DNA from: an uncultured Nitrososphaerota archaeon
Lineage (GTDB): Archaea; Thermoproteota; Nitrososphaeria; Nitrososphaerales; Nitrosopumilaceae
DNA: 64,000 nt
Direction of reading: 5' to 3'
Assembly (NCBI GenBank): GCA_963824385.1
Contig: CAWGPD010000001.1
Coordinates: 32,001-96,000 of the forward strand
In this document: in pieces, positions 1,162 to 37,190 of the stretch
Position numbering within the stretch: position 1 is the first letter of the stretch
Layout of the letters: every line of letters begins with the position of its first letter
Notes under the pieces: generated by a model
Databases searched by the model: none
Seen by the model: the letters and a program-made list of their open reading frames with translations, nothing else
What the model was told of the DNA's origin: nothing
Position numbers and translations under genes: made by a program

Positions 1162-2026
1162 TCATGCAAAATGTGGATCATTTTTTGCAAGTCGTTTATG
1201 AGTCTCTGCCTCAGTGTATGCTATTACAATATCAGTTGCACTGATGACACCGCTTAGATTATCACATTCATCAATTACAGGAATTCCACTCACTTTGTAT
1301 TCAACCATCAAATTAGCTGCTTGAGCAAGATCATCTTCAGAGTGTACAGTTATCAACTCGGAACCAATGACATCTCCAATTGTCATTCCCTTACCCGAGT
1401 CATCTGGAAGTAAATAGTTTCTACTGGGATTTTTGAAATAATTACTATTTCTAAGAAAAGAGTCGTATGTTATTAGCCCCATCACTTTTCCCTCACTATC
1501 AGTTACAACAAGTCTAGAAATTTTATTTTTATTTAACATGTCAAGTCCAAAGCAAAGTGAATCAGTCTTTCTACATGTCATTAGTCTTGTTGACATGTAG
1601 TCCTTTACTTTGTACATCCTAGAATATTTAATTGCAAAATTATATACTATGTCAGACTTGGTAGTCAATCCAACCAGTTTTCCATCTTCATTTGTTATTA
1701 TCACAGAACCGATTTGAAAAGTATACATCCTTACTGCGCATTGAGAAAGCATATCGGACTGGCCTGAAGATACAGTTACAAGATTTCTACTCATCATCTC
1801 GTTTAATTCAATTTGAGTCAAATTTCGAGCGGTCTTGTCAGATTCTAAGAAATTTCCAATATCCCTTTCCGTAACAATTCCAATTGGAATATCTTTTTCA
1901 ACAATTACAATTCGTTTAATGTTATTTTTTTGCATCAATTCTAATGCATCGTGTATTGTATGTTCTTTGTATAATGTTACAATAGATTCAGTATATTGTT
2001 TCAGCCTATTTCCACCAATATTCCAT
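1162..2026 (-). CDS. Four-CBS-domain protein (probable 1-bp indel just after the ATG at 2026)
   Basis: Repeated CBS motifs (GIVTERD, GLTTKSD, GVISATD); the frame stays open upstream of 1938 to about 2028. Confidence 0.8.
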
Positions 2027-2102: not shown

Positions 2103-2444
2103 CTAATTCTCTAAATCAGAATTAGGAACAATTTCGACTTCAAGAGAGCCATTTTTGAAGCATGTCATTATGGACTTTACTCTGGATTTGTAGAGAAAAT
2201 ATTTTTTCCCGTCTTGGTTAATAGAGCCTGATATTCCCAGTAATTTGTGCCCATGTAACAATTGCACTCTACGGTATGCAGTGCTAATTGGTATTCCACA
2301 CTCGTTGCTTAGGTCGATTGCAGATTTTGGCATCTCCATTGTGGCTTCCAATATACCTCGCGAGTACTTGTCTGCCAGGATTTCAAGATACGCATCTTTT
2401 GTGGATGGTTCTTGAACTGTTTTCCCTTGTAGTAAGACTTGCAT
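2103..2444 (-). CDS. Thaumarchaeal ArsR-like winged-helix regulator
   Basis: ILADKYSR.IL...KSA.DLS.ECGIPISTAYRR...GKKYFLYKSR. Confidence 0.8.
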   Translation of the reverse strand: MQVLLQGKTVQEPSTKDAYLEILADKYSRGILEATMEMPKSAIDLSNECGIPISTAYRRVQLLHGHKLLGISGSINQDGKKYFLYKSRVKSIMTCFKNGSLEVEIVPNSDLEN

Positions 2445-6975: not shown

Positions 6976-7884
6976 TTATTTCATAAATGCAGATAACTTG
7001 CCGATATCATCGAAGATTTTTTCGGTAGATAGTTTCAAGAGTTTAGATTCTTTTTCGTCAAGATCTAGTTGCAATATTTCTTTTACCCCGTTTTTCCCAA
7101 AAATTATAGGAACACCCATAGAGAATCCACTAAAGCCATACTCGCCATCCAAATATACTGAAGCAGATGCAAGAAAATCCCTCTCTTCCACTATCGATTT
7201 TGCTATATCAAATGTGTTTTTTGCAGCACCAAATACAGATGCCTCTTTGTAGGCAACAAGATATTTCCAATAGTTTTTTAGTTCATAAGTTATTTCACTA
7301 GTTTTTTTTTCTGAGAGGCTAATTTTCTGACCTTGTGATTTTGCGTTTGAAAAAAGTGGAACCATTGTAGAACCATGTTCACCAATAACCAATCCATCTA
7401 TTTGTCCTTGTTTTACGCCCAGTTCTTTTGCAAGAAGGTAGCGAAATCTACTAGAGTCCAAACTAGAACCCATTCCAATAACTCGTCCTCTTGGAAACTT
7501 GGTTTGTTGCAGTATTTGATACGCCATAACATCTATAGGATTAGTTACAACAATCACCTTTGCCTCATCTGCATACTTTGTGAGATTTTTACATATTTCT
7601 GATACAATTGGAACATTAAATGGCAAAAGTTCAGCCCTGTCTTCTTTGATGACTCCACCGCTTACGGTAATTATTACAACATCAGAATTTTTCATCTTGG
7701 AATAATCATCAGTTCCCATAACAGAGATGAGTGATTTTTCAGGCAGAGCATTGCTAACATCCATGGCTTCACCAAGAGCTTTATTCTTTGATCTATTGAT
7801 AATGACCAAGTCATCTAGTCCTGATTGTCCAACTAAAAATGCAACTGCAGATCCTACACGACCTGCACCAATTATAGAAATCAT
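6976..7884 (-). CDS. Lactate/malate dehydrogenase family protein (divergent)
   Basis: GAGRVG, VTNPID, LDSSRF, GEHG motifs. Confidence 0.85.
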   Translation of the reverse strand: MISIIGAGRVGSAVAFLVGQSGLDDLVIINRSKNKALGEAMDVSNALPEKSLISVMGTDDYSKMKNSDVVIITVSGGVIKEDRAELLPFNVPIVSEICKNLTKYADEAKVIVVTNPIDVMAYQILQQTKFPRGRVIGMGSSLDSSRFRYLLAKELGVKQGQIDGLVIGEHGSTMVPLFSNAKSQGQKISLSEKKTSEITYELKNYWKYLVAYKEASVFGAAKNTFDIAKSIVEERDFLASASVYLDGEYGFSGFSMGVPIIFGKNGVKEILQLDLDEKESKLLKLSTEKIFDDIGKLSAFMK

Positions 7885-7890
7885 CAGTAG

Positions 7891-8373
7891 TTACTTTACA
7901 ACAAGGACTGGAATATGTGACTTGTGTACAATTGCATTTGAGACACTTCCCAAGAACGCTTCTTTTATTCCTCCCATCCCTCTAGATCCTATAACGACAA
8001 GATCAAATTTGTTTTGTTTCATAAAATCAATAATATCAGATGTCGAATCTCCGTAGATAATTTTATGACGAAACACAATACCATTTTGTGCCGATTTTAC
8101 TTTGGCTTGTTCCATAAATTTTTCTGCATCTTTGATAAGTTTTGCCTTTAAAGGAGTTACAAGATCACCCAGATGCTGAGGATAAACTGAGACTACGTTA
8201 ATGCCAGTTATTATTGCGCCGCATTGTCTTGCCAGAAAGATTGCCATATCAAGTCCAGTAAATGATGTCTTTGAACCATCTAGCGGTACTAGAATTTTGG
8301 CAATTTTTGTCTTGATCATAAAATCACTTGGAGATAGGTATGATTTATCATCACCTCTTATTATCGCAGACAA
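7891..8373 (-). CDS. Universal stress protein
   Basis: KILVPLDGS...GSRG...FLGSVS...PVLVVK; the true start may be MIKTK. Confidence 0.9.
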   Translation of the reverse strand: MSAIIRGDDKSYLSPSDFMIKTKIAKILVPLDGSKTSFTGLDMAIFLARQCGAIITGINVVSVYPQHLGDLVTPLKAKLIKDAEKFMEQAKVKSAQNGIVFRHKIIYGDSTSDIIDFMKQNKFDLVVIGSRGMGGIKEAFLGSVSNAIVHKSHIPVLVVK

Positions 8374-8437
8374 AAACCAACTGTTTTACTTTTATAGCCC
8401 TAGATTATTATTGAGGAAATAAGGAGCAAAAAGAGAA

Positions 8438-9607
8438 ATGAGTTCACCACAAGTAATCTATGGACATTTAAAAGAAGTAAGAGATCTCAAGGTAGATAAA
8501 ATATTAAAGAAGGCAACCACTATCGATTCGACTGATTCCATATCTAAAATAGTCGGAGTTTTGATAAATTCTGATTCTTATGAGGTATTCTGCATGGACG
8601 GCAAGGACGTTCTCACAATAAGCGCACGTGAGCTTTTAGGCATCAAAGACATGGGGGATGTAAAGATAAAACCATTATTACGAAAGATTCAGCCGCTGAC
8701 TAGAAATGATACTGTGGAAAAGGCAGCTGCAATTTTATCTCATTACAGAATGCGTTCAGTACCAGTAGTAGAAGGAAATGAGATAGTCGGAGCAGTCAAT
8801 GGAAAAGACATTGTTGAACTATTACAGAAACAGGATTTAAAATGGGTACCAGCTAGTAACATACTAACTGCAGACCCGATTACTATAACCAGTACTGATT
8901 CTATTGCAACTGCAAGAAAATTAATGATAACAAAAAGAATTGATCATCTTCCAGTCATCAAAGGCGGTAAAGTTTCTCAAGTGGTGACATCTATGCACTT
9001 GTTGCAAGTGATAAAACCTACAGAAAGATTAGGGATGGGGTTAAGAGGACTAGATTTACAAAAGAAATACAAAGAAAATATAGCAAACATGGGCAGTACA
9101 CGCATTCCAAATCTTAACACCAATGCGCCACTCAGTTTAGTGATAGAATCAATGCTAAAGAATGACTCATCATGTTGTTTGCTTACTCTAATGGACCATG
9201 TCCATGGAATAATTACTTACAAAGATATCATCAACTTGCTTGAATCAAGAGTACCAAGTGATGTTCCACTATACATTGTTGGCCTTCCTGAAGATTACAG
9301 TAGTGCAGAAATTGTCAAAACAAAGTTTGACAAAATTATTAGAAACCTTACGAAAGTATACCCTGAAGTAGAGCAGGCCAAGGCATCAATTAAGACAGTA
9401 CACAACCCAGATAGCAATAGACCACATTACGAAGTCAGTGTCAGAGTATTCAGTCCATACAGAACCTACAACTATACTGAAATGGGATGGGATCTCTCAA
9501 AAGTTTTCGATACTCTAGGTAGCAAATTAATCCGAAACTTGTCTCAACGCAGCAAGAAACGTTGGAAGACTAGCATTAGAAAAGTAGACAAGCATGATAT
9601 CTTCTAG
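8438..9607 (+). CDS. Four-CBS plus C-terminal HPF/RaiA-like domain protein (putative ribosome hibernation factor)
   Basis: Four CBS repeats, then a beta-alpha-beta-beta-beta-alpha pattern ending in WDLSKVFDTLGSKLIRNL, like the HPF DLYAAID...KLERQL helix. Confidence 0.7.
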   Translation: MSSPQVIYGHLKEVRDLKVDKILKKATTIDSTDSISKIVGVLINSDSYEVFCMDGKDVLTISARELLGIKDMGDVKIKPLLRKIQPLTRNDTVEKAAAILSHYRMRSVPVVEGNEIVGAVNGKDIVELLQKQDLKWVPASNILTADPITITSTDSIATARKLMITKRIDHLPVIKGGKVSQVVTSMHLLQVIKPTERLGMGLRGLDLQKKYKENIANMGSTRIPNLNTNAPLSLVIESMLKNDSSCCLLTLMDHVHGIITYKDIINLLESRVPSDVPLYIVGLPEDYSSAEIVKTKFDKIIRNLTKVYPEVEQAKASIKTVHNPDSNRPHYEVSVRVFSPYRTYNYTEMGWDLSKVFDTLGSKLIRNLSQRSKKRWKTSIRKVDKHDIF

Positions 9608-9684
9608 AAGATAGAATTCAAGATTAGTTCTCTAAAAGGTAGAATATCACATTATTATGTAACGATGTTCTAAACAAATGCGAT

Positions 9685-9792
9685 ATGGATGGAGATCATT
9701 TCTGGAAACAAAACGTGTGCTCTGACTGCAAGCGAGTCAAATGCCAAAAAGGATGCAATTGTGATTGCCATTGGAACAAAAATAACATCTAA
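9685..9792 (+). CDS. 35-aa Cys-rich microprotein
   Basis: Manual translation MDGDHFWKQNVCSDCKRVKCQKGCNCDCHWNKNNI*. Confidence 0.5.
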   Translation: MDGDHFWKQNVCSDCKRVKCQKGCNCDCHWNKNNI

Positions 9793-9880
9793 TGCAATAT
9801 CTGAACAAAATTCAACACTCACAGGTCATTATGAATAAAAATAGATTCTCAAGTTTTAAATTATCAAACAAGTCCATAAC

Positions 9881-10795
9881 ATGCTAAACATGCAACGAGA
9901 TTTACAACTAACTTTTAGAATGATAATTAGTTTTCTAGCCCTTACTCTAATCTATCTTGTATTTTTGGGCTTTATTGCCGCATATTTTGGACTAGGCATA
10001 CTCCCCATAGCCATGATTGCAGGATTGATGATTGGCGCACAGTGGTTCTTTTCTGATAGAATCGTTTTATGGAGTACGGGAACCAAGATTGTATCCAAGG
10101 AAGAATTTCCAGTGCTACATCAAATAATAGAAAGTTTATGCCAAAAAGCAAACATTCCAAAACCAAAAGTTGGAGTGATGAAAAGTGATGTTCCAAATGC
10201 ATTTGCAACAGGAAAAGGCCCAAAAAGTTCTGTAGTAGTTGTAAGCTTGGGAATTTTGAAAATATTAGACAAGGACGAGCTTGAGGGGGTTTTATCACAT
10301 GAACTTACTCATATAAGAAACAGAGATGTTACAATCATAACACTTGCAAGTCTGTTCTCTACAATTGCATGGTTTCTCATGCAATCTTCAATGTTTAGTA
10401 CAATGTGGGGAGGAGGCTATGGAGGAAGACAGCAGCAAGGCGGAAATACAATTTTGATTCTAATAGTAGCAGGAATAGTTTGGTTCCTAAGTTTTCTAAT
10501 CATCAGAGCAATATCTCGATACAGAGAGTTTGCAGCAGATAGAGGAGGTGCATATCTTACAGGCAAGCCAATGTATCTATCACGTGCACTGATGAAGATT
10601 AGCGGAGAGGTCAAGGTTGCACCAACCCAGGAACTTAAAAAAATAGAAGGACTGAATGCGTTTTTCATAATACCAGCAATATCAGGCCAGACCATTGCAA
10701 GGTTCTTTTCTACGCACCCTCCAGTTACAGAAAGGGTAAAACGCCTGATGCGAATAGAGCAAGAACTTCGCGATTCGGATACACAAGGAATTTAA
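9881..10795 (+). CDS. htpX: Zinc metalloprotease HtpX (M48)
   Basis: PNAFATG, HELTH, SRYREFAAD, STHPP. Confidence 0.93.
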   Translation: MLNMQRDLQLTFRMIISFLALTLIYLVFLGFIAAYFGLGILPIAMIAGLMIGAQWFFSDRIVLWSTGTKIVSKEEFPVLHQIIESLCQKANIPKPKVGVMKSDVPNAFATGKGPKSSVVVVSLGILKILDKDELEGVLSHELTHIRNRDVTIITLASLFSTIAWFLMQSSMFSTMWGGGYGGRQQQGGNTILILIVAGIVWFLSFLIIRAISRYREFAADRGGAYLTGKPMYLSRALMKISGEVKVAPTQELKKIEGLNAFFIIPAISGQTIARFFSTHPPVTERVKRLMRIEQELRDSDTQGI

Positions 10796-10862: not shown

Positions 10863-11407
10863 CTATTTAGCCTTCATCCGTTTTATTTTTTCTTGAAGTA
10901 ACATACATCCCTGGATTAGTGTTTCTGGTCTAGGTGGACAACCTGGAACATAAACATCAACGGGAAGAACCCCATCAATTCCCGGTAGTACGTTATACGA
11001 GTCAAAGTATAATCCTCCAGTAATTGCACATGCCCCCATTGCTATGACATATTTTGGATCAGGCATCTGATCATATACCATTCTTAATCTAGGAGCCATC
11101 TTTCTGGTTATAGTTCCCATGACAACAATAAGATCACATTGTCTGAGAGAACCAAATGCTTCGATGATACCAAATCTTTCAACGTCATAACGAGGGCTAG
11201 ATGCACTCCAAATTCCACACTACAACATGCTGTCTCAAGATGGACTGGCCATAGAGAGTAAATTCTGCCCCAGTTTATTGCCATGTCAAATGGTTTTCCA
11301 ACTGCTTTGATTAGTACGTCACCAAGTTTTCCAACTAAGACATTAGTTGCATGTGGTGCAGTATCTTGATTAAATAATTCTTTTAGCATTGTCATGTTTC
11401 TATACAT
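10863..11407 (-). CDS. nuoB: NADH-quinone oxidoreductase subunit B, standalone copy (1-bp deletion near 11205)
   Basis: TACCSVE in one frame; MGACA...[13 protein letters not shown] in the other. Confidence 0.85.
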
Positions 11408-13154: not shown

Positions 13155-14662
13155 ATGATATCAAAAACCGTTATTTTGTTTGGCATAATCATTGCACTCT
13201 CATCTGCACTAACAGGAGTTGTTGTCTATCACTTTACTTCAAATTCAAACCAGGCTACAATGGTAACCCAGACTGCAACTCCTACTATACTCCAAGGTGT
13301 TACTAGGACCTATTACATTGCAGCAAACGAGGTAAACTGGAATTATGCTCCATCAGGTACAAACCTGATAACAGGTCAGCCGTTTAATGCTACTACTTGG
13401 TCAGCGCTCTATACACAAAATGGAGTAGACAGGATTGGTACTGTATATCTAAAATGTCTCTATCAGGGATATACCGATGATTCTTTTACAACATTACAAA
13501 ACAGAACTGCCGAGTGGGAACATCTTGGCATACTGGGGCCTGTTATTCATGCAGAAGTTGGTGATACCATCAAAGTAGTATTCAAGAATAATTGTAGAAT
13601 TCCTGTCAGTATGCATCCACATGGTGTTTTGTATGACAAGGCATCAGAGGGCGCACCATACAATGACGGCGTACCTGACTCACAAAAAGGTGGTGAAGCA
13701 GTACCGCCTGGTGGCAACTTTACATATATCTGGAATGTGCCAGAGAGGGCAGGTCCTGGACCACACAATCCAAGTTCCATATTGTGGATGTATCATTCGC
13801 ATGTAAATGAGATTACAGATACCAGTGCAGGACTTGTTGGACCTATTATAATAACAAGAAATGGAGAGGCAAATCCTGACGGTACTCCGAAAGGGTGTTG
13901 ATAGGGAAATGTTATATTGTTTACAATACTTAATGAAACCAGCAGTCCATATTTGCCAATCAACATCAAGACATTACTGGGAGACATCTAGCAGGTAAAC
14001 GAAATGACCCAATTCTGGGAAAGCAATCTCAAGTATTCTATTAATGGTTACATGTTTGGAAATACACCAGGACTTGATATGCAACAAAATACTCATGTGC
14101 GTTGGTATGTGGCAGGAATGGGTAACAAGAGTGGATGCACGCACCACATTGGCATGGAAATGCATTAATGATAGCCGGCATGTCACAGACATGGTAGAAC
14201 TTCTTCCAATGAGCATGAAGGTGCTAAACATGTACCCTGACAACGTGGGCACCTGGCTTTTTCACTGCCATGTAAATGATCACATCCAAGGTGGAATGAT
14301 GGCATTATATACTGTAGAGAAAATTAATGCAACACAATCCAACAATACAACTGGGGAAAATCTCAAAATTGGATTAACAACTGATACTGCAAATCCAACT
14401 ACTGGACAACCAACTAATCTCAAGGTAGATTTTATCGATGGTCGACCAATTCAATGAGGACATGTTGATTACAAAGTTAGCATTCTCCAGGGAACAACTG
14501 AGGTCTTTCCACCTGCTTTTACACACTACTGATGGTTCTGTCACTATTCCATACAAGTTCCAAAATGCAGGAGCCTACCAGGTGGTAGTTGAGGTGGACG
14601 GGGTTTGGTTCCTGCCAGTTTCAGAGACTGCGCAATTTCCAATCAATGTTTCAAGTTCATAA
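13155..14662 (+). CDS. Secreted multicopper oxidase (ceruloplasmin/hephaestin-like cupredoxin domains), several frameshifts
   Basis: YYIAA.E..WNYAP, LGILGPVIHAEVGD, SMHPHG, WMYHSH, WLFHCHVNDHIQGGM spread over successive frames. Confidence 0.8.
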
Positions 14663-15052: not shown

Positions 15053-15870
15053 TTGGTTGACTTTACAACGACACTGATACTCAGTGCGGTCATGGGTCTT
15101 TCTACCTTTTTGTCTCTACCACTTGTTCTCCGCAAAAAACTGGGTAATAGAAAAATCATATTTTTCAACTCTGTTGCAGTTGGCATTCTTGTCTTTCTGA
15201 TGGCAGACATCTATTCTGATGTAGCTCCGATGTTAAGTAACGGTTCCTTGCAAGGGTATGGCACAGATCCATTTTTTGATCGGTTATGTCGCACATATGC
15301 ACTGGTGGATTTCTTGTCTTGTATTTCTTGGAACACAAATCAAAGCACGGATTATCACCTATCAAACTGGCTCTGATAATTGCCATTGCTATGGGATTCC
15401 AGAACTTAACTGAAGGATTAGTCTTGGAGTGCAAGTGTAAAGTATGGACTTGTAGGTAAGACGTTTGTAATACTGGCAGGTTTCTCAATTCAGAATTTAA
15501 CAGAAGGCTTTCCAATTGCTGCCCCGATGGCAGGCAAATTGGACAGAAAGTTGGCATATTATGTATGATGTTCCTAATAGGAAGTGTTCCAACAATACTT
15601 GGTGGTGGCATTGGATATGTTTACAATTCAAATGTCCTTGATGTACTGTTTAATGGCATTGCAATAGGTACTATACTATATGTAATACTTCCAATGTTTA
15701 GAATACTCTTCAGGGAACCACGTGAGGAACCAACACAGGTTGTTGCTATAATACCACAGGGCTCAAAAGAAAAGCACGGTCATACTCTGGTACATGCCTT
15801 AACCCAGCGAGCCATCTATCTTGGAATTTTTATTGGCTTTGCACTTGGCTGGATTGTAAATTTAGTGTAA
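15053..15870 (+). CDS. ZIP-family metal transporter (frameshifted)
   Basis: AVGILVFL, GFQNLTEG and QNLTEGF motifs; paralog of 43179-44027. Confidence 0.75.
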
Positions 15871-17070: not shown

Positions 17071-17142
17071 TTTTTTATCCTATATATCATAAGACTGACT
17101 GGGGTATTTGTAAGATTATCTAATTTATCAATTTGACAAGGT

Positions 17143-17590
17143 CTAGTGAACAATGGTAACAGGACAGGCAGCGTGTTCTGATACATGCCTTGCAGTACTT
17201 CCAAGTCTTTTCAGAGATGAAACACCGGTTGAGCTTTCTGCTTCCCATTACCACTAGATCAATTTTTGATCTTTTTACCTCTTTTAAAATAGCATCGGAT
17301 ACGTCATCATGGACAATTTTATAAAATGTCTTTGCGCCCTCCTCTCTGCATTTTTCTGTAATTTTTTTCATCTCCTTTTCACCCTGCTCTGTTAGAGATT
17401 TTACAACCTGTTGATAATTCATAACTGCAGTTCCTGAAAAAACAGAGTCACTTATTGGATAGTAGACAGGAATTACCATCAAGAGTTTCAGATCAGCATT
17501 AAAATTTCTTGCAATATCTTTTGCCAATTCTAATGCCTTTTTTGAAAGAGGTGAGCCATCATATGGGACCAAGATATTTTTTAGTAGCAA
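17143..17590 (-). CDS. Universal stress protein (frameshift near 17228)
   Basis: NILVPYDGS, VMGSRK; the other frame supplies LGSTARHVSEHAACPVTIVH*. Confidence 0.85.
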
Positions 17591-17860
17591 TTAGAACAGT
17601 TCCTTGACTTTACTTTTGTATACTTCAACAATTTGTCCAAATTCTGTATAGTCACTAGCAGATGGAATTTGCATTCGCATTGCACATTGTGATACAAAGA
17701 CTGTCAACGCGTTTCCCACCATCATGTTAAAAGTCATCTCAGAGAGGTCTTTAACCGCAGGAAAAGCCATTTTAAGAAATGGCAGGTAGATCTTTGTCTG
17801 GTTTAACATTAGTTCCATGTTCTTCTCAATTGCTGCTTTTACCTCAGGCTGGATAGTCAT
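17591..17860 (-). CDS. Conserved thaumarchaeal hypothetical protein
   Basis: Coding-like 89-aa ORF in the operon with the USP. Confidence 0.65.
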   Translation of the reverse strand: MTIQPEVKAAIEKNMELMLNQTKIYLPFLKMAFPAVKDLSEMTFNMMVGNALTVFVSQCAMRMQIPSASDYTEFGQIVEVYKSKVKELF

Positions 17861-17861
17861 T

Positions 17862-18074
17862 CTAATTCACCGAGACTACCTGGTACGGTTTTGATTGATA
17901 GTGAGTAGAGCATAGAAACACCATTTCTCCATTTAACACCTTGGCTGTAATCGAGATTCCATTTAATTCTTTTTTGCATATATGGCATGTAAGCGGTTTG
18001 ACATCAGATTTTATGAATTTTTTTTCATGTGAAAAATACAAGTCCTGAGTATGGAGCTCTCTGCCATATTTCAT
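17862..18074 (-). CDS. Small CxxC...CxxH zinc-finger protein
   Basis: QDLYF...CHICKKELNGISITAK...LCSTH; paralog at 51870-52086. Confidence 0.7.
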   Translation of the reverse strand: MKYGRELHTQDLYFSHEKKFIKSDVKPLTCHICKKELNGISITAKVLNGEMVFLCSTHYQSKPYQVVSVN

Positions 18075-18132
18075 AAAAGACAGTTTCAATATTATTAAAG
18101 TGATCTTCATTATCAAGATAGAGTTCAAGTGG

Positions 18133-18148
18133 TTATCAGTTCTGATAA
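18133..18148. promoter_or_regulatory. Palindrome TTATCA-N4-TGATAA
   Basis: Perfect arms in a divergent promoter, about 13 bp upstream of the TATA box; second perfect copy at 29832-29847. Confidence 0.55.
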
Positions 18149-18188
18149 TCCTGACAGAAATTTTATACTAAATTAATGGATTATTGTC

Positions 18189-18638
18189 GTGACCGTGACT
18201 CGCGATATAATGTCAAGTAAAATAGTCACAATTGAATCAAATGTATCATCTACTGAAATTGCAAAGATCATGGACAAAAACAAGGTAAGCAGTATCATAA
18301 TAACAAAAGATCAAGTGCCAGTTGGCATAGTAACGGAGAGAGATATGGTATCAAAGATTGTTGCACAAAACAAGAAACCGTCTGAAGTAAAGACTGCAGA
18401 GATTACAGCCTCACCTCTTTTCATAGTAAGTTCACTTACACCCACAGATGAGGTAGCAAAGAAAATGGTAGATAAAAAAATTAGGCGAGTTGTGGTAATG
18501 GATTCTGACCAGGCACTAGGAATCATAACAGTGACAGATTTTGTAAAGCACTTGCATGAGATGCTTGCGGATTCTGAAAATTACAACAAGGTTCTATATC
18601 AGCGTCTAATAGAAGACTGGGAATACTGGATGTCCTAA
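18189..18638 (+). CDS. CBS-pair protein
   Basis: GIVTERD, GIITVTD. Confidence 0.9.
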   Translation: MTVTRDIMSSKIVTIESNVSSTEIAKIMDKNKVSSIIITKDQVPVGIVTERDMVSKIVAQNKKPSEVKTAEITASPLFIVSSLTPTDEVAKKMVDKKIRRVVVMDSDQALGIITVTDFVKHLHEMLADSENYNKVLYQRLIEDWEYWMS

Positions 18639-18761
18639 TCAGGACATGAATTTGTTAGTATAAAATTTGAAATTAATGTATGAATCCAAGGATGGTCCCG
18701 GCATTACCAGATATTATAATAGGATGTCAAGTTTTTATGTATCAATTTCATACTGGAACCA

Positions 18762-19205
18762 TTGGATAATTTTTCTGCCAAAGACATAATGAAGAACCCG
18801 GTTGTTACAGTTGATTCTGCCATGTCAGTTATGGATACAGCAAAGATAATGGATGATGCAGGCATTGGCTGTGTTGTTGTCATAGAGAACAATATTGCAG
18901 TGGGTATAGTAACAGAGCGCGATTTTGTCAAAAGGGTTGTATCTCGTGCAATTCCACTGACAACTCCAATAAAAAAAGTAATGTCGTCTCCGTTGATTGT
19001 AGTAAATCCAGAAGAGAACATTTGGGAAGTGGCAGAACTTATGAAACAGAGAAGGATTCACAAGGTTCCAGTGGTATATCAGGATCTCCTAGTTGGAATT
19101 GTAACAGCAACTGACTTGACCAAACTATGCAGCATTGGCTCTGATTCAGAGATGCGAAGGATAACAGACCAGATACTTTTGCGAATGAAGCCTGCAGACA
19201 AGTAA
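18762..19205 (+). CDS. CBS-pair protein
   Basis: GIVTERD, GIVTATD. Confidence 0.9.
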   Translation: MDNFSAKDIMKNPVVTVDSAMSVMDTAKIMDDAGIGCVVVIENNIAVGIVTERDFVKRVVSRAIPLTTPIKKVMSSPLIVVNPEENIWEVAELMKQRRIHKVPVVYQDLLVGIVTATDLTKLCSIGSDSEMRRITDQILLRMKPADK

Positions 19206-19211
19206 TTTAGT

Positions 19212-20074
19212 TTAATTTTTAACTATAGCGCGTACAATGTCAGTCTTTGTTACAATTCCTACCAATAGCTTGCCCTTGACAACTGGCAGTCCGCTGATTC
19301 CATTACTTATGCATCAAGTGGGACGACATTTGATACATCGTCTGATACATCTACAGTTATTGGGTTTGATGTCATAATATCAGTTGCAATAAATGTCAAA
19401 AGATAACTTCCAGTACGTTTTGAGCGATACTCTTTTGGATTTGTAGCCATCCTATAGTTTTCAACTTCGGTTCAATATCCAGATTGTTTTAGCCATAGAG
19501 GCATCTTGGCAGGTATGAAATCTCTGTGAGTGATAATTCCAACAGGCTGTCTGTTTCTTTCTACAACTACTCTAGATATTTTATTGTTGACAAGAACACT
19601 TTCAACATATAGTAATGAATCTGCTGGTTTTACTGTAATTACATCTCTTGTCATGATTTTAGAGACTAGTAATGGTTCTGTGGCTTGTGTTAAAAATACG
19701 GATGCCAGTACTCTACTTGTAATAATTCCAGCTAGTGTCTTGTCTTTGTGTAGTACTATAACAGAACTGATTTTATTATCAAGCATTAGTTTAGCACAGT
19801 CGTATAACGTTGCACCTTCTGGAACAGTAACAAGGTCTTTAGACATAACATCAGATACGCGTGTAGCCTCTAGTGGTTTTGCATCAATTCTATAGATTGC
19901 CTTTACCAGGTCTTTTTCTGTAAGCATGCCTACTGGCTTGTCTTTTTCTGATACCATAAGTCGGCTAATCCTGTGCTTGAGTAAAATTGCTCTTGCATCC
20001 AAGAGGCTTGTTCGTGGGGTTACTACAATTGTTTTTTTTATTACTTGATTTATGCTGTCATTTTTTAGTTTCAA
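19212..20074 (-). CDS. Four-CBS-domain protein (frameshifted C-terminus)
   Basis: GMLTEKD, GIITHRD; the last CBS (ISGLPV...VGIVTKTDIV) lies in other frames down to 19212. Confidence 0.8.
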
Positions 20075-24478: not shown

Positions 24479-26087
24479 TTATCCCAAACTGCCCCCAGCC
24501 CACCTAGAGCCCTTACTTACAAGCCATGCCAAGTATGCATATCCTGCAGCGTGCAATGCATCGTCATTGGTTTCCTCTGGATGAGTATACTTAACATAGC
24601 TTTTACCAGAAGATTCCGCCGTTTCAGATTCTATGCATGTAAAATGTTCAATCATCCAGTCCATATTATTGGGATTTTTATATGGAATATGGATTCGTGG
24701 AATGCCGTCAGGGTAGTTTGCGTTATCTTCAGGGCGTTTTATTAGATCTATTATGGTCTCAATTACCCAGGTTCTATCTACATTAATTTTATGATCTGAA
24801 TTAATTATTTCATATGGAACTTCAGAATTATACCTGTAATGGCACTTGTAAATTCTAGGTCCATATTTTTTTGAAAGCTTCTCAACCTGTCTTGTACCAC
24901 CACCAGAGTCCATCACAATTTGATCAACTTCAAACTTGTCAATTAATTCAGAAACCATATCAGTCTTGGGTTTCAGTAGAACTTTCTGTAATCTTTGTTA
25001 CATACAATAACTTGAATCTTGGGACATCTTTGTTGACCAGCTGCCAAATCCAGCCTACAGTGAACGCTTGAGTACCACCACCCCAGTCTACTCCCATAAA
25101 TACTAGAAGATCATGATCAACTAATTCATGTGGAGTGAAATCAAGATTTCTGTCAAATAATGTACGAATCTCTTTTTCAAGTAATGGTTTGACATTTCCG
25201 CCATACCACAAACCCTCAACCTCATTTGCAAATCCTCGTGGCGGATAGGTTTTTCGTTTGGATTCTATATCTTCTTGTAATCTGTCTGGCGCCATCTCCT
25301 GAGAAAGATGATACGAACTTATTTTTGAGAGGGGGTTTTTTGCAATCCAAGTTTTTGTTTTTAAATCATATTCTTTTTGATCTCCCGTATGCCACAACTT
25401 CCACCAGCCATCGCCTGTTATGCTTCCAGTACCAACGTGCACACATTTCCCAAATTTTGATTTTGCAAGTGCCTCTTCTAGTACAGGTATAGATTCTACA
25501 TTTGTTGACTGGATTTCATCGACAACTGCAAAATCTGCAGGAATAGACCTAGCGGCTTCAAAGTCTTGCTGGGCAGAGTACATGAACAAGTGTGAACCAT
25601 TTTTAAAAGACAGCCATGAAACGTTGCCCTTCTTGTGCACTAGTCCTTGAAGTATCGGTGATTCACCAATGGCACGACTACGTACTCTCATTTTTGAAAA
25701 CACGGAAACGTGGCTTTTACGGTCTGAGAGGTATATTCCTACAGTATTTGGATTTTTTTCCAGATTAAAAAGCAACCAGTTTATGGTAAATTCTGTAATT
25801 TCCATTTGTCTTGGTTTTACAATCATAATTTTCTTGTTTTGATCAGAATAGATTTGCTTCAGATATTCTCGTCCCTCAAAAGAAAATTTTTTGCCCTGAA
25901 TTTTTCTAACTGTTGTTGTCCAGTCTATGAGATTGTCAGGAGTATTTGGAAGTGTTACGGGCATCACAAATTTTTTCTCGAATATTTTTTTTATTCTAGC
26001 AATTTCCCTTCTTGCAAGTAGATTATGCGCCGCCTTCCACCTAAGCTGCGACATGGTCAGTCCCCATCTTTTGCTTGAAGAGATCAT
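24479..26087 (-). CDS. Viral terminase large subunit (ATPase plus RNase H-like nuclease), frameshift near 24963
   Basis: KPRQMEITE Walker A-like, AVVDEIQ Walker B, GVDWGGG, MDSGG and DDALHA nuclease motifs. Confidence 0.8.
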
Positions 26088-26520
26088 CGGTTTCTGTTTG
26101 TACTATAGTATCAGTAGTTGGCGTGCATTCAAGATTATTCTTCTCAAGATATAGTTTTAAGATAAGTTCCTTTGTCTTACGATATTCTGAATATAGCCAC
26201 CTTTTTTTATGAATTGGCCCTGATGATTTTATTGCTACATCTAGTTCGGCGCTTCGTTTTTTCATTTCAAGTATTTCATTGTCTAATTCTAAAATTGTTC
26301 TACCATTTGATAGTCTGCAGTTTTTAAAAAACTCAGGTCCCTGTACAGAAATGTATTTCTCATGCCAAATTCTAAAGTATCGCCTGACCGTTTTTACGTT
26401 TATTCCTGTCTCATATGCAACTCTATCAGGCTTGTACCTTTGCTCAAAATATGGCCAGAGTTGTCTTTCGATCTCACTCTGTTCAGCCAATGTTGGCCTT
26501 CCGTTTCTTTTTTCAGACAT
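26041..26520 (-). CDS. HTH protein, possible terminase small subunit
   Basis: GRPT N-terminus, VAYETGINVKTVRRYF HTH, coiled coil; overlaps the terminase start. Confidence 0.6.
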   Translation of the reverse strand: MSEKRNGRPTLAEQSEIERQLWPYFEQRYKPDRVAYETGINVKTVRRYFRIWHEKYISVQGPEFFKNCRLSNGRTILELDNEILEMKKRSAELDVAIKSSGPIHKKRWLYSEYRKTKELILKLYLEKNNLECTPTTDTIVQTETDDLFKQKMGTDHVAA

Positions 26521-29796: not shown

Positions 29797-29831
29797 ATAG
29801 TACTAAATACACTATATAATTAACATATACA

Positions 29832-29847
29832 TTATCAGACATGATAA
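29832..29847. promoter_or_regulatory. Palindrome TTATCA-N4-TGATAA
   Basis: Centred between the divergent cupredoxin and cyclase TATA boxes. Confidence 0.55.
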
Positions 29848-29890
29848 CCATTTCCAGCTATAATACACAATTCTAAAAAAGAACAGGCAG

Positions 29891-30787
29891 TTGATAGTAA
29901 ATACAATGATATCATTTCCTTATGATGTAACAGAGGATAGGTCGCGATTTCAAAAATCTGTAATAGACGGGGATCTTGGATATTATGATACAATAGCAAG
30001 AAAATTCATACCGCAAGAAACTTTGGATTCTCTTCTTGAGAATATAATTCCTGAAAAAGAACATCTCCTAGTTTCTGAGAAGGATCCAAGATTATCACAA
30101 TCAGTAAACAGAATTAGAAGAAATTTATCCATATATCAGAGAAATCCAAGTGATTCATACGCCCAGATTTTTCTTAAATATTTATCCAACAGATATTTGA
30201 GTTCAATACGAGAACAAAAGCTGGATGCTGCAATACTCTATGTTGATGTGGTAGGATCTACAAAAATTGCCACCCAGCTTTCTGCATCAGAGTTGTCATC
30301 TCTAATTCGAGTATTTTCTCAAGAGATGTCAATTATAATTTCTAGACACGGAGGTTTTGTTTTAAAATATGCAGGCGATGCGGTGATTGCGTATTTTCCA
30401 TCGTCTAGCGAGTTTGGAAATGCAACTGAGAATGCAGTAAGATGTGGAAATATAATGAATGCAATAATAGAACAATCACTTAACTTTGCTTTTCGAGATT
30501 TTGCGTTGCCACCAATTCAAGTCAGGATCTCAATTGATTTTGGCACTAACGAAGTCGTATTTTTAGGCCCGGAGCCGGATTTAATTGGACATACTATTAC
30601 AATTGCATCAAAGATGATTCGATTTGCAAAGCCCGGACATATAGTAATAGGAGAAAACGCACATAAACAATTAATCGAACCACACACAACCAGTTTTATT
30701 CCTGCAGGCAAAGAGATAGAATGGGAATACAGCGATCCAGGGACAGGAAAGATATATCCCATATACTTTTCAGGAGATAAGAAATAG
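29891..30787 (+). CDS. Class III adenylate/guanylate cyclase
   Basis: LYVDVVGST and KYAGDAVIA metal-binding motifs. Confidence 0.85.
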   Translation: MIVNTMISFPYDVTEDRSRFQKSVIDGDLGYYDTIARKFIPQETLDSLLENIIPEKEHLLVSEKDPRLSQSVNRIRRNLSIYQRNPSDSYAQIFLKYLSNRYLSSIREQKLDAAILYVDVVGSTKIATQLSASELSSLIRVFSQEMSIIISRHGGFVLKYAGDAVIAYFPSSSEFGNATENAVRCGNIMNAIIEQSLNFAFRDFALPPIQVRISIDFGTNEVVFLGPEPDLIGHTITIASKMIRFAKPGHIVIGENAHKQLIEPHTTSFIPAGKEIEWEYSDPGTGKIYPIYFSGDKK

Positions 30788-30789
30788 AG

Positions 30790-32200
30790 ATGGAACAAAA
30801 ACCCAAGAGATATGGTCTTTCAGACCTTGAGAGATTTGTAGAGATTGGAAACAGGTCCCTTCTAGTAAAAGGAAGGTCTGGAACTGGCAAAGAGACACTT
30901 TGTTTTGAACTTGCAGGGGGCAAGGTAAAAGAGTACAATGTCATATTTATCACAAGAAACCAAACAGACAAAATACTTTACAGACGATTTCCGTGGATTA
31001 CAGATTTTATCTCTCCTTCAAATATTGTTGAAATATCACCAGAAGACGCAGTATTGACAGACCCTTCATTTGTCATATCTGCCATAGTAAATGCAATAGC
31101 AAACTCTTCTAAAAAAGTCAAAGATCCTTTTCTTGCCTTGGAGAGTGTAAGAAAGCCGTTCATCATACTTGATGTCTGGGATTCAGTTTCAAGAGAGATG
31201 AATGCGTTAGATAGAATGCGTGCAGAGAAACTTTTGACATCACTTGCAGAAAAATATGATGGATTCATAATTTTCCTAAGTGAGCAACAAGATACTGCAT
31301 CACTTGAATATCTAGTAGATGGAGTGATAGAGACATCACAACGTTACTTTAAGACATATAGAATAAGAGAAGTAAGCCTTGAAAAATTAAAAGGCGTCCC
31401 CATCAAGAGGCCAAAGATTCCATTTACACTTCAAAATGGAAGATTCCAGTCATTTTCAAATCTGCGCAGTAACATGAAAAGCATTTCAATGTTTATTCCA
31501 TCTCCAGATTCAGATGTACGATATTCTACAGGTAGCAAGGATTTTGATTTAAAATTAAACGGAGGTTTTAGGAGAGGCTCTGTAATTGGAATTGAGATTG
31601 ATAGTGATGTAGACCGTTTTGCTTTTGTGCCACTACTCTCACCTATTGCACTAAACTTTATGGTTCAAAATAACTCGGTTTTAATATCATCCTCATCAGA
31701 CCAAGATGTAAGTGCTGTAGTAAATTACCTAACACCATATGCAAACAAAGACGCATTAAATAATTTCAGGATATTTGGACACACCTTTGGTACAAAATCA
31801 GATTACATCATAGAAAGAGAGGGCTTGGATTTTGAATCATCTAACAAAGAATGGCAAAAAACATACAGTACCCTAAAAGAAAACGGCAAACCACTCTTAA
31901 TGTCAGCAGATTATAGCTTCTTGGAGCTTGCCTACCAGTCAGAAGAAAAATTAATCTTAAAATCCCTGATTGATAATTCACGCATGATAAGACATAACAA
32001 GGATCTCTTTTTGATTATTTCAAGACCTGGATACAAGTCATTAGAGATTATGAAAAGTGTATGTGACTTGCACTTGAGATTGTTTGATCATGAAGGTACT
32101 GTATTTCTATCTGCACTCAAACCGCAGCTATTCTTGTGCAACATGCAATCAAGTCTTTGAAAACGGATATCCTCAACTAGTTTTAGAAGATTCAGTATGA
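30790..32200 (+). CDS. KaiC/GvpD-like double RecA-fold ATPase (frameshift near 32153)
   Basis: GRSGTGKET Walker A, LEYLVDGVI, LEKLKG, second domain STG..DFD.KL.GG. Confidence 0.75.
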
Positions 32201-32289
32201 TAAAATTTGCATAAATTATCACCACAATCATATTTTCAAGATAGATAATGGGCATTTTACTTTAATACACCTTATACCGATGTTATTCC

Positions 32290-35878: not shown

Positions 35879-37190
35879 TTACGGTGTAAGCCTATCGACA
35901 TCACGTGGATAAAAGGTAGCATCTCTGATATTTTCAGTTCCAGTAAGTGCCATCATTAATCTCTCAAGGCCTATACCACATCCTGCGTGAGGTGGGACTC
36001 CATAATCAAAGACACGCAAGTGATAATCAAATGCTTCCAGTTTGAAGCCCTTGTTTTTCATCCTCTCTTCTAGTTCAAGTCTTTTTTCAATTCTTGTACT
36101 GCCTGAAGACAATTCAAGATCTCCAAACATCAAGTCAAATGACTCGGATGTCTTTTGATCATCATTTTTGGCTTTAACATAGAATGGTTTTGGAGCAAGT
36201 GGCCAGTCCTTGATAAAGTAAAATCCGCCAAGATTGATCTTTTTTAATTGTGAAGGATACAAGTCATCTCCCCATTTTGTAGTGGCTCCTGCATTTTGCA
36301 TCTTTTCCACCAATTCAGTATACGCATACTGGGGAATTTTTTCAGGAATTTCCGGAACTTTGTAATCAGTTGTCTTTATCAAATCACAATAGTCTCTTAC
36401 TACACCAATTGATCTTTTAATTATATTTTCAGTGTGCATCATTATATCATTATAATCTGCAAATGCTTCTTCAATATCTATTGAGATTGCCTCTGAGAGG
36501 TGTCTGTTAGTTCTAGATGCTTCGGCTCTAAATATTGGCGCAATCTCAAATATTTTTTCAAATGATAACGTCAGCTGTTCTTTGTAAAGCTGAGGACTCT
36601 GTGCTAAAAATGCCTCTTTGTTATAGTAAAATATTGGAAACAATGCAGCACCGCCTTCTGTTGCAGTTGCAATCATCTTGGGGGTGTTTACTTCAAGAAA
36701 TTCTTTTTCATACAGATAATCGCGAATTGATTTTAAGACCAGGCCTCGCATCTTAAAGATATGCTGTAAGATATTTCGTCTAAGATTCTATTGCCCTAAG
36801 TTCAAGTCTTGTATCGATATTTGGAACAACTTTGGTCTGCCATGTAAAGGGCGCAATTTTTTCAACTATTGAAAATACACGTAGTTCACTTGGTGTTATC
36901 TCAACTCCCCTTGGAGCCTTGGGAGAAGGTTTTACAATTCCTTTTATTGCTATAGTAGATTGCTCTTTGAGGTTTACAAGACTAGCTTTAATCTCATCTG
37001 GACAGACACCTGCTTTTGCAGTAATCTGTATCTGTCCCTCTTTGTCATTTAGCATGACAAATACTAGATTTCCATGATCTCGCACACTTGAGACCCAACC
37101 CATGACAATGACCTCTTTTCCATCCATCGAAGTATCAAGTTGAGTAGAATAGATAGTCCTACGCCAATCCCCAAGTTCTGTGCCTATCAT
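35879..37190 (-). CDS. aspS: Aspartyl-tRNA synthetase, probably non-discriminating (frameshift near 36786)
   Basis: OB-fold (GWV..VRDHG), LAQSPQLYK, FRAE, PPHAG.G.GLER. Confidence 0.93.

Follow-up and report, generated by a model that had tools for sequence, protein, structure and literature searches.

A predicted HibA/AHA-family ribosome hibernation factor from a Nitrosotalea-type ammonia-oxidising archaeon, and a candidate stress regulon linked to the genes of its family

We propose, with a probability of roughly nine in ten, that the 389-aa protein encoded at 8438..9607 (+) of the window, by which we mean the whole 64,000-nucleotide stretch of DNA analysed here, is a ribosome hibernation factor of the HibA/AHA family from a Nitrosotalea-type ammonia-oxidising archaeon, and that, judged by its sequence, fold, homology and contact residues, it would park and protect 70S ribosomes. 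The family is already published, Nitrosotalea orthologs included, and the protein itself is a rediscovery. HibA was described in 2026 by Madru et al. in Nat Commun (PMC13324472), and AHA, the Haloferax volcanii protein HVO_2384, in the same year by Souza et al. in EMBO J (PMC13728122), which bears out the remark in the preliminary description of this DNA that CBS-containing hibernation factors had recently been reported in archaea. The new lead is a palindrome found upstream of orthologous genes, together with its candidate regulon, both of which suggest that hibA may be switched on along with other stress genes.

The gene, which profile searches identify as a fusion of four CBS domains with an HPF domain, is an intact open reading frame running from ATG to TAG without an internal stop, and the opposite strand carries stops throughout 8438-9607. 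A TATA-like box (8390..8397, +) was recognised by sequence, with a similar T-rich box at the same place in related loci, and a Shine-Dalgarno-like AGGAG (8422..8426, +), likewise assigned by sequence, lies 11 nt 5' of the ATG. Contigs of the soil metagenome runs X1 and X2, both of which are possibly the source of this DNA, span 8000-10000 unbroken with 0 differences, and run X6, from a separate study, covers three pieces of the same interval, also with 0 differences. Met252 (codon 9191-9193) stands where homologs have a nearly invariant Trp. A paired indel error was considered as its cause and rejected; because the X1, X2 and X6 contigs agree with the letters of the window while X11 has the Trp codon, we regard Met252 as a real strain allele. 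Rfam returned zero matches over 7800-10000, and a sigma-70 promoter and terminator scan, which is uninformative for archaea, gave 8 sites against 5.8 expected and 0 terminators. A short inverted repeat at 8340-8351 was spotted by eye.

The preliminary description had read the protein as four CBS domains followed by an HPF/RaiA-fold domain and a basic tail. Pfam CBS matches, structural models and Foldseek confirm this architecture, and all the strings that it quoted are present in the protein (LYIVGL at residues 278-283, AKASIKT at 314-320, YEVSVRV at 331-337, YNYTEMG at 344-350 and DLSKVFDTLGSKLIRNL at 352-368). The CBS tetrad, delimited by Pfam, model and Foldseek, occupies about residues 12-270 (8471..9247, +) and contains a long CBS3 loop, placed by the HibA alignment and the model at residues 192-212 (9011..9073, +). 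The HPF/RaiA-fold region covers residues 275-372 (9260..9553, +), as assigned by profile, C-terminal model, Foldseek and VIA-align, and the basic tail (9554..9604, +) is evident from sequence, with 9 Lys or Arg among the last 24 residues, and is modelled with low confidence. Pfam found three CBS stretches in the whole protein (E 5e-21) and left its HPF model unmatched, and neither NCBIfam nor Pfam matched the C-terminal 115 aa; the assignment of a fourth CBS repeat and of an HPF fold comes from structure. Among homologs, Pfam S30AE was matched by 13 of 64 full-length sequences and TIGR00741 by 10 of 40 C-terminal ones (E<=0.1).

The full-length AlphaFold2 model (mean pLDDT 85.1) retrieved the CBS tetrads of MJ1225, SSO3205, Sri, AMPK-gamma and Dri over about 270 residues in a Foldseek search; no HibA chain is among the matches listed, from a structure library that extends to 8 April 2026 and may lack the HibA entries. 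The C-terminal 116 residues, modelled alone from 40 sequences, gave a pLDDT of 87.8 and 28 Foldseek matches at E<=1e-3, all among those listed being HPF, RaiA, PSRP1, RafH or pY proteins. VIA-align, a structure search independent of Foldseek, was run with the same model against 48,161 chains, and its top 16 matches belong to the HPF/RaiA family (Z 9.5-14.0; rmsd 2.2-2.7 A for the top five), the next, unrelated chain scoring Z 7.9. The comparison of the C-terminal domain with HPF by AlphaFold and Foldseek, which the preliminary description had proposed as a check, thus returned the HPF fold. The last helix is followed by the 17-residue tail only, and the 100S-dimerisation domain of long HPF is absent.

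Membership in the HibA/AHA family rests on profile ranking and on an ortholog in a published set. When 5.8 billion proteins were searched, 339 of the 4631 candidates turned out to be relatives; identity ranges from 99% to 55% among the 120 relatives listed, and since most of those with a name are 'CBS domain-containing proteins' from Nitrosotalea or Thaumarchaeota, we infer a Nitrosotalea-type ammonia oxidiser as host. A profile of 64 full-length homologs found as its best PDB match HibA (9SR9_H, E 1.5e-45) in a single stretch over profile positions 10-367, then 9L96, a 406-aa CBS protein with the same two-part match, and both Sri (1e-35 or weaker) and Dri (8e-27) ranked below HibA. PDB entries 9SR9-9SRF and 9T7H are Pyrococcus abyssi HibA (PMC13324472). 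Compared singly with HibA by phmmer, the protein matches at E 5.4e-8 over residues 27-288 only. The database ortholog P0035 is 76% identical without gaps, and its residues 272-389, compared by eye, are identical to the Nitrosotalea devanaterra C-terminal domain in the source data of Souza et al. (PMC13728122). Those HPF source data hold four Nitrosotalea records, one of them a 389-aa protein marked 'extracted_CTD 272-389', and the seed set of the same study included Nitrososphaera viennensis (PMC13728122). The full-length HibA profile match and the 76% ortholog in the published set therefore back the identity of an HPF-fusion hibernation factor that had been put forward from the letters alone. 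The two reports place the fusion of four CBS domains with HPF in 47% of 4026 archaeal genomes (PMC13324472) and count 3160 AHA homologs in 6968 genomes (PMC13728122). Experiments on ammonia-oxidiser orthologs were not found in the literature, which was searched mainly among open-access papers and which yielded, on this factor, only the three hibernation papers cited here.

What such a protein would do can be anticipated from its better-studied relatives. Pyrococcus, Thermococcus and Haloferax orthologs are reported to bind ribosomes, inhibit translation and preserve 70S particles, with a regrowth defect on knock-out, and knock-outs in T. barophilus and H. volcanii lower the 70S pools and delay regrowth (PMC13324472, PMC13728122). 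The HPF domain of HibA occupies the 30S mRNA/tRNA channel, its tail touches h23, uS7 and uS11 near the mRNA exit channel, and the protein blocks in vitro translation, for which the C-terminal domain is required (PMC13324472); the CBS module of HibA and AHA is seen in as many as three positions on the 50S subunit, with one of its loops reaching into the peptidyl transferase centre (PMC13324472, PMC13728122). The HibA 16S contacts R299, R336, W351 and R366 correspond, by eye in a profile alignment, to R302, R336, W351 and R366 here, and from these conserved contact residues we predict 30S channel binding and translation inhibition for this protein also. Residues 192-212 of the loop align gap-free with HibA 187-207 (the HibA loop in the peptidyl transferase centre being 190-207); its length is identical in 53 of 53 close homologs, with P194, G199 and G204 invariant, its pLDDT falls under 50 at 196-203, and Y195 of the HibA loop, which stacks on an adenine of the peptidyl transferase centre, has no clear counterpart. 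In the mechanism we envisage, the HPF domain would sit in the 30S mRNA/tRNA channel, the CBS tetrad would fill vacant tRNA sites on the 50S subunit, where the CBS3 loop could enter the peptidyl transferase centre, and one adenylate, preferably AMP, would be held, probably at the CBS4 pocket. The outcome would be an inactive, protected 70S ribosome that could be reused on regrowth.

The gene is the only HPF-domain copy found in this 86%-complete genome: a close-homolog profile gave no second or standalone HPF gene above E 0.0098, and a wider HPF profile matched once, at the gene itself. Across the family, the domain occurs in 81 of 150 other Nitrosopumilaceae genomes and in 15 of 25 genera, mostly within full-length fusions, ten matches being standalone HPF frames of 114-140 aa. 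Order-wide, 77 of 101 genomes match, and the weakest of these matches may be CBS matches, because the profile includes part of CBS4. Madru et al. name Nitrosopumilaceae among lineages without such factors, as marine plankton (PMC13324472); with the domain in 81 of 150 genomes, that remark fits only part of the family.

Around hibA lies a stress island of Usp genes, Hsp20, malate dehydrogenase, HtpX and several CBS proteins, with a universal stress protein gene (7891..8319, -) diverging from hibA in the same arrangement as in 7 of 9 other loci examined. Directly 3' of hibA, five loci (L004, L005, L006, L009 and L010) carry a convergent thermosome-like gene, so named by its translation, in the place taken in the window by htpX. 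Other CBS proteins, which have at least three repeats or the length of a tetrad, are encoded at 1162-1938 (-) and 19472-20074 (-) and elsewhere in the genome (C1:161681-162517, C1:261596-262435 and C4:377565-378410). The product of 1162-1938 most resembles MJ1225 and a Sri chain of Methanosarcina and possibly belongs to the 'SriC-short' group described for Nitrososphaerales (PMC13454478). All these proteins coexist with hibA, though the papers report sri and hibA rarely together. In P0121 and one Nitrosotalea record of the Souza source data (PMC13728122), the start of a Usp is joined to the end of an HPF with differing breakpoints. Such joined proteins would follow if the divergent usp-hibA pair were inverted, but both are probably chimeras of amplification or assembly, and one stands in a published dataset. 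Four genes of the window, resembling NADH dehydrogenase subunit B, a multicopper oxidase, a membrane transporter and an aminoacyl-tRNA synthetase, appear to be split into two frames (10863-11407, 13155-14457, 15053-15870 and 35879-37190), by assembly frameshifts or as pseudogenes. A gene in pieces at 24479-26520 (-) resembles a terminase large subunit (Pfam GpA_ATPase, E 4e-6); its neighbours are without a family, and the region is possibly a provirus remnant.

Comparison of ortholog upstream regions brought out a motif, ATTATC-N6-GATAAT or, more fully, ATTATCA-N4-TGATAAT, about 30 nt 5' of the TATA box; L003, whose upstream region is too short, was left out when the loci were first checked for the motif. 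In this genome 28 sites lie within one mismatch of it, 19 of them outside called ORFs in a genome that is 86% coding. From 16 intergenic sites of this genome, hibA's own not among them, we built a matrix that matched the genome 74 times at >=12 bits, whereas ten column-shuffled matrices matched it 1-41 times. The window itself holds a degenerate copy at 8359..8378 (+), which keeps the left half and the TATA spacing of the strong copies in relatives and scores 4.4 bits; the close relatives L001 (8.1 bits) and L011 (8.3 bits) likewise keep the left half only. Because only the left half is kept, the site at the window's hibA may have weakened or left the regulon.

How the activity of the protein might be governed depends in part on its nucleotide pocket. 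The HibA ATP contacts T137, I161, P165, I254, T256 and D259 correspond to T144, I168, P172, I258, T260 and D263, and the CBS4 pocket residues I168, P172, G257, I258, T260 and D263 are invariant in 53 close homologs; since this pocket is kept, AMP is likely to bind there. Asp169 occupies the position of HibA Ser162, a beta-phosphate contact (Asp in 56 of 64 wider homologs), His170 replaces HibA Arg163, and His187 replaces the CBS3 Asp of HibA in 53 of 53 close and 27 of 64 wider homologs. With the CBS4 residues kept and the CBS3 Asp changed to His187, we infer one canonical adenylate site, against two filled in Haloferax AHA. It is conceivable that the tetrad works as an energy switch, AMP promoting and ATP releasing ribosome binding, such that translation would track the adenylate charge. 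The invariant CBS4 pocket would suit such a role, as would the affinities of the HibA CBS module (Kd for AMP 12 uM, ADP 65, ATP 113; PMC13324472), the two AMPs held by Haloferax AHA (PMC13728122), a preprint on nucleotide control of related ARC/Sri proteins mentioned in PMC13728122 and PMC13454478, and Asp169, which could sharpen the preference for AMP. However, AMP and ATP are reported to leave the states of HibA on reconstituted ribosomes largely unchanged, with 'no clear effect' on binding, and the isolated CBS part of HibA not to inhibit translation (PMC13324472); moreover, the second pocket carries His187 in every close homolog, and a palindrome conserved 5' of the gene suggests that control in Nitrosopumilaceae is transcriptional. 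Souza et al. themselves offer adenylate control of AHA as a hypothesis (PMC13728122), and we consider the switch unlikely. Of the preliminary description, then, the CBS-HPF fusion and its identification as a hibernation factor stand, whereas silencing according to AMP/ATP is not established: the CBS4 pocket is kept, but nucleotides are reported to have no clear effect on HibA binding (PMC13324472).

Far less probable still, the protein could be a CBS regulator in which, in this lineage, the HPF-like domain no longer acts on ribosomes and has some other nucleic acid or partner as its target. HhpR-type tetrads are indeed transcription regulators, HibA was pulled down with replication and recombination proteins (PMC13324472), and a search of 151 family genomes left 69 without the gene; against this, the 16S-contact residues, the loop for the peptidyl transferase centre and the basic tail are all kept, and a standalone HPF persists without the CBS part in 10 family genomes, which shows that the function retained is that of the HPF domain. 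Quite compatible with the hibernation factor we propose, and about evenly poised in our judgement, is mainly transcriptional control, in which the gene would belong to a stress or dormancy regulon under a putative activator at ATTATCA-N4-TGATAAT just 5' of the TATA box. The matrix reaches >=12 bits 5' of the HPF-bearing gene, whether fusion or standalone, in 36 of 40 genomes picked across genera from the 82 HPF-positives, where shuffles predict 0.29 and where the genomes are kin; in this genome as a whole 41 of 1838 upstream regions do so, and in other families of the order 0 of 19 valid upstream regions attain that score (21 loci, L084 with its short upstream and L074 with its 2.5-kb region being left out). 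Over 151 genomes a strict pattern matched 984 times and its reversed control 24 times, with at least three matches of the pattern per genome in 82 of 82 HPF-positives (median 9) and 20 of 69 negatives (median 1). This contrast is inflated by the sites of the gene itself, by base composition, by how complete the genomes are and by their kinship; the median is higher in the HPF-positives in 11 of 11 mixed genera. In Thermococcales, hibA is reported to be under the Phr repressor (PMC13324472). On the other side, the window's own site is degenerate, the best 20-mer near it scoring 5.7 bits and 17% of the genome's upstream regions reaching its 4.4; L004-L010 are no independent test, because the seed consensus came from ortholog promoters; other spacer lengths give 19-26 matches against 28 for the 6-nt spacer, which makes the raw site count weak alone; and AHA is described as constitutive in Haloferax (PMC13728122).

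Among the genes that bear the motif in this genome are 7 of its 20 CBS genes and 3 of its 15 Usp genes (six of the ten served as training sites), and further an M50-CBS protease, a P-type ATPase, a nitroreductase, pyridoxamine-oxidase-like proteins and an adenylate-cyclase-like gene. Strong copies of 12.7-24.4 bits (2056-2075, 18131-18150, 18702-18721, 29830-29849 and 32231-32250, with more elsewhere in the genome) precede CBS genes, the adenylate-cyclase-like gene and a pyridoxamine-oxidase-like gene. Two side observations belong here: at 29891-32160 (+) a strong palindrome precedes an adenylate/guanylate cyclase-like gene, behind which lies one for a KaiC/GvpD-like ATPase, and a near-identical Usp-CBS-CBS block with motif sites occurs twice in the genome, at 17120-19205 and C5:9975-12905. 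Neither the palindrome nor its regulon was found in the literature on ammonia oxidisers, again searched mainly among open-access papers.

A candidate reader of the palindrome is encoded within the island, namely a small winged-HTH (ArsR-like) protein of 113 aa (2103..2444, -), picked out by co-occurrence and proximity; it was the sole regulator candidate put to the co-occurrence test. Of the 82 HPF-positive genomes 75 have a close ortholog (best E below about 1e-29), as do 8 of the 69 negatives; it lies within 10 kb of hibA in 28 of 48 same-contig cases. Thirteen genomes without an ortholog, including the single-contig G007 and G012, nevertheless keep 5 or more sites, G026 has the ortholog and zero sites, and shared gain and loss of the stress island would give the same pattern of co-occurrence. 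The assignment of this protein as regulator is tentative. Building on it, we sketch a broader and somewhat doubtful scheme, in which Nitrosopumilaceae hibernation is wired into a family-specific dormancy regulon: the winged-HTH activator of the island would bind the palindrome by the TATA box and switch on hibA or the standalone HPF along with genes for Usp and CBS proteins, the M50 protease and the P-type ATPase, and regulon, regulator and factor would have been lost together in many lineages, the whole being an archaeal counterpart of DosR/FixK.

Ammonia-oxidising archaea drive nitrification in soil and ocean and endure long starvation, and HibA/AHA offers them a concrete route to keep their ribosomes. 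The protein described here adds little to this picture, since the occurrence of the family in ammonia oxidisers is already in published datasets. The palindrome, if it holds, would be of greater consequence: it would name testable co-regulated dormancy genes and a candidate regulator in a group for which the literature search turned up no regulon, and would suggest that the control of hibernation differs by lineage, being constitutive in Haloferax, Phr-repressed in Thermococcales and palindrome-linked here.

Taken together, the closest known systems are HibA and AHA themselves. With HibA, the protein shares four CBS domains (1-269) and an HPF domain (270-392) in a chain of 392 aa against 389, the long CBS3 loop, the CBS4 pocket and several 16S contacts; it differs in its distant sequence, in a CBS3 loop of other sequence, in Asp for Ser162 and in His for the CBS3 Asp. 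AHA has the same architecture, but holds AMPs at sites 3 and 4 and is constitutive (PMC13728122), whereas here only the CBS4 site is canonical and an upstream palindrome accompanies the Nitrosopumilaceae orthologs. SriA-D of Methanosarcina (PMC13454478) and Dri of Pyrobaculum (9E6Q, 9E7F) are homologous ribosome-binding CBS tetrads, yet they have no HPF domain, and Dri has two tetrads where this 389-aa protein combines one with HPF. Bacterial HPF, RaiA and RafH and plastid PSRP1 have the fold of residues 275-372 in common with it at 9-20% identity, but no CBS module. Finally, the dormancy regulons of mycobacterial DosR and of proteobacterial FixK/Fnr resemble the motif-bearing set in gene content and also include a hibernation factor; they use another DNA motif, against the archaeal promoter layout seen here, and the likeness is one of content and not of homology.
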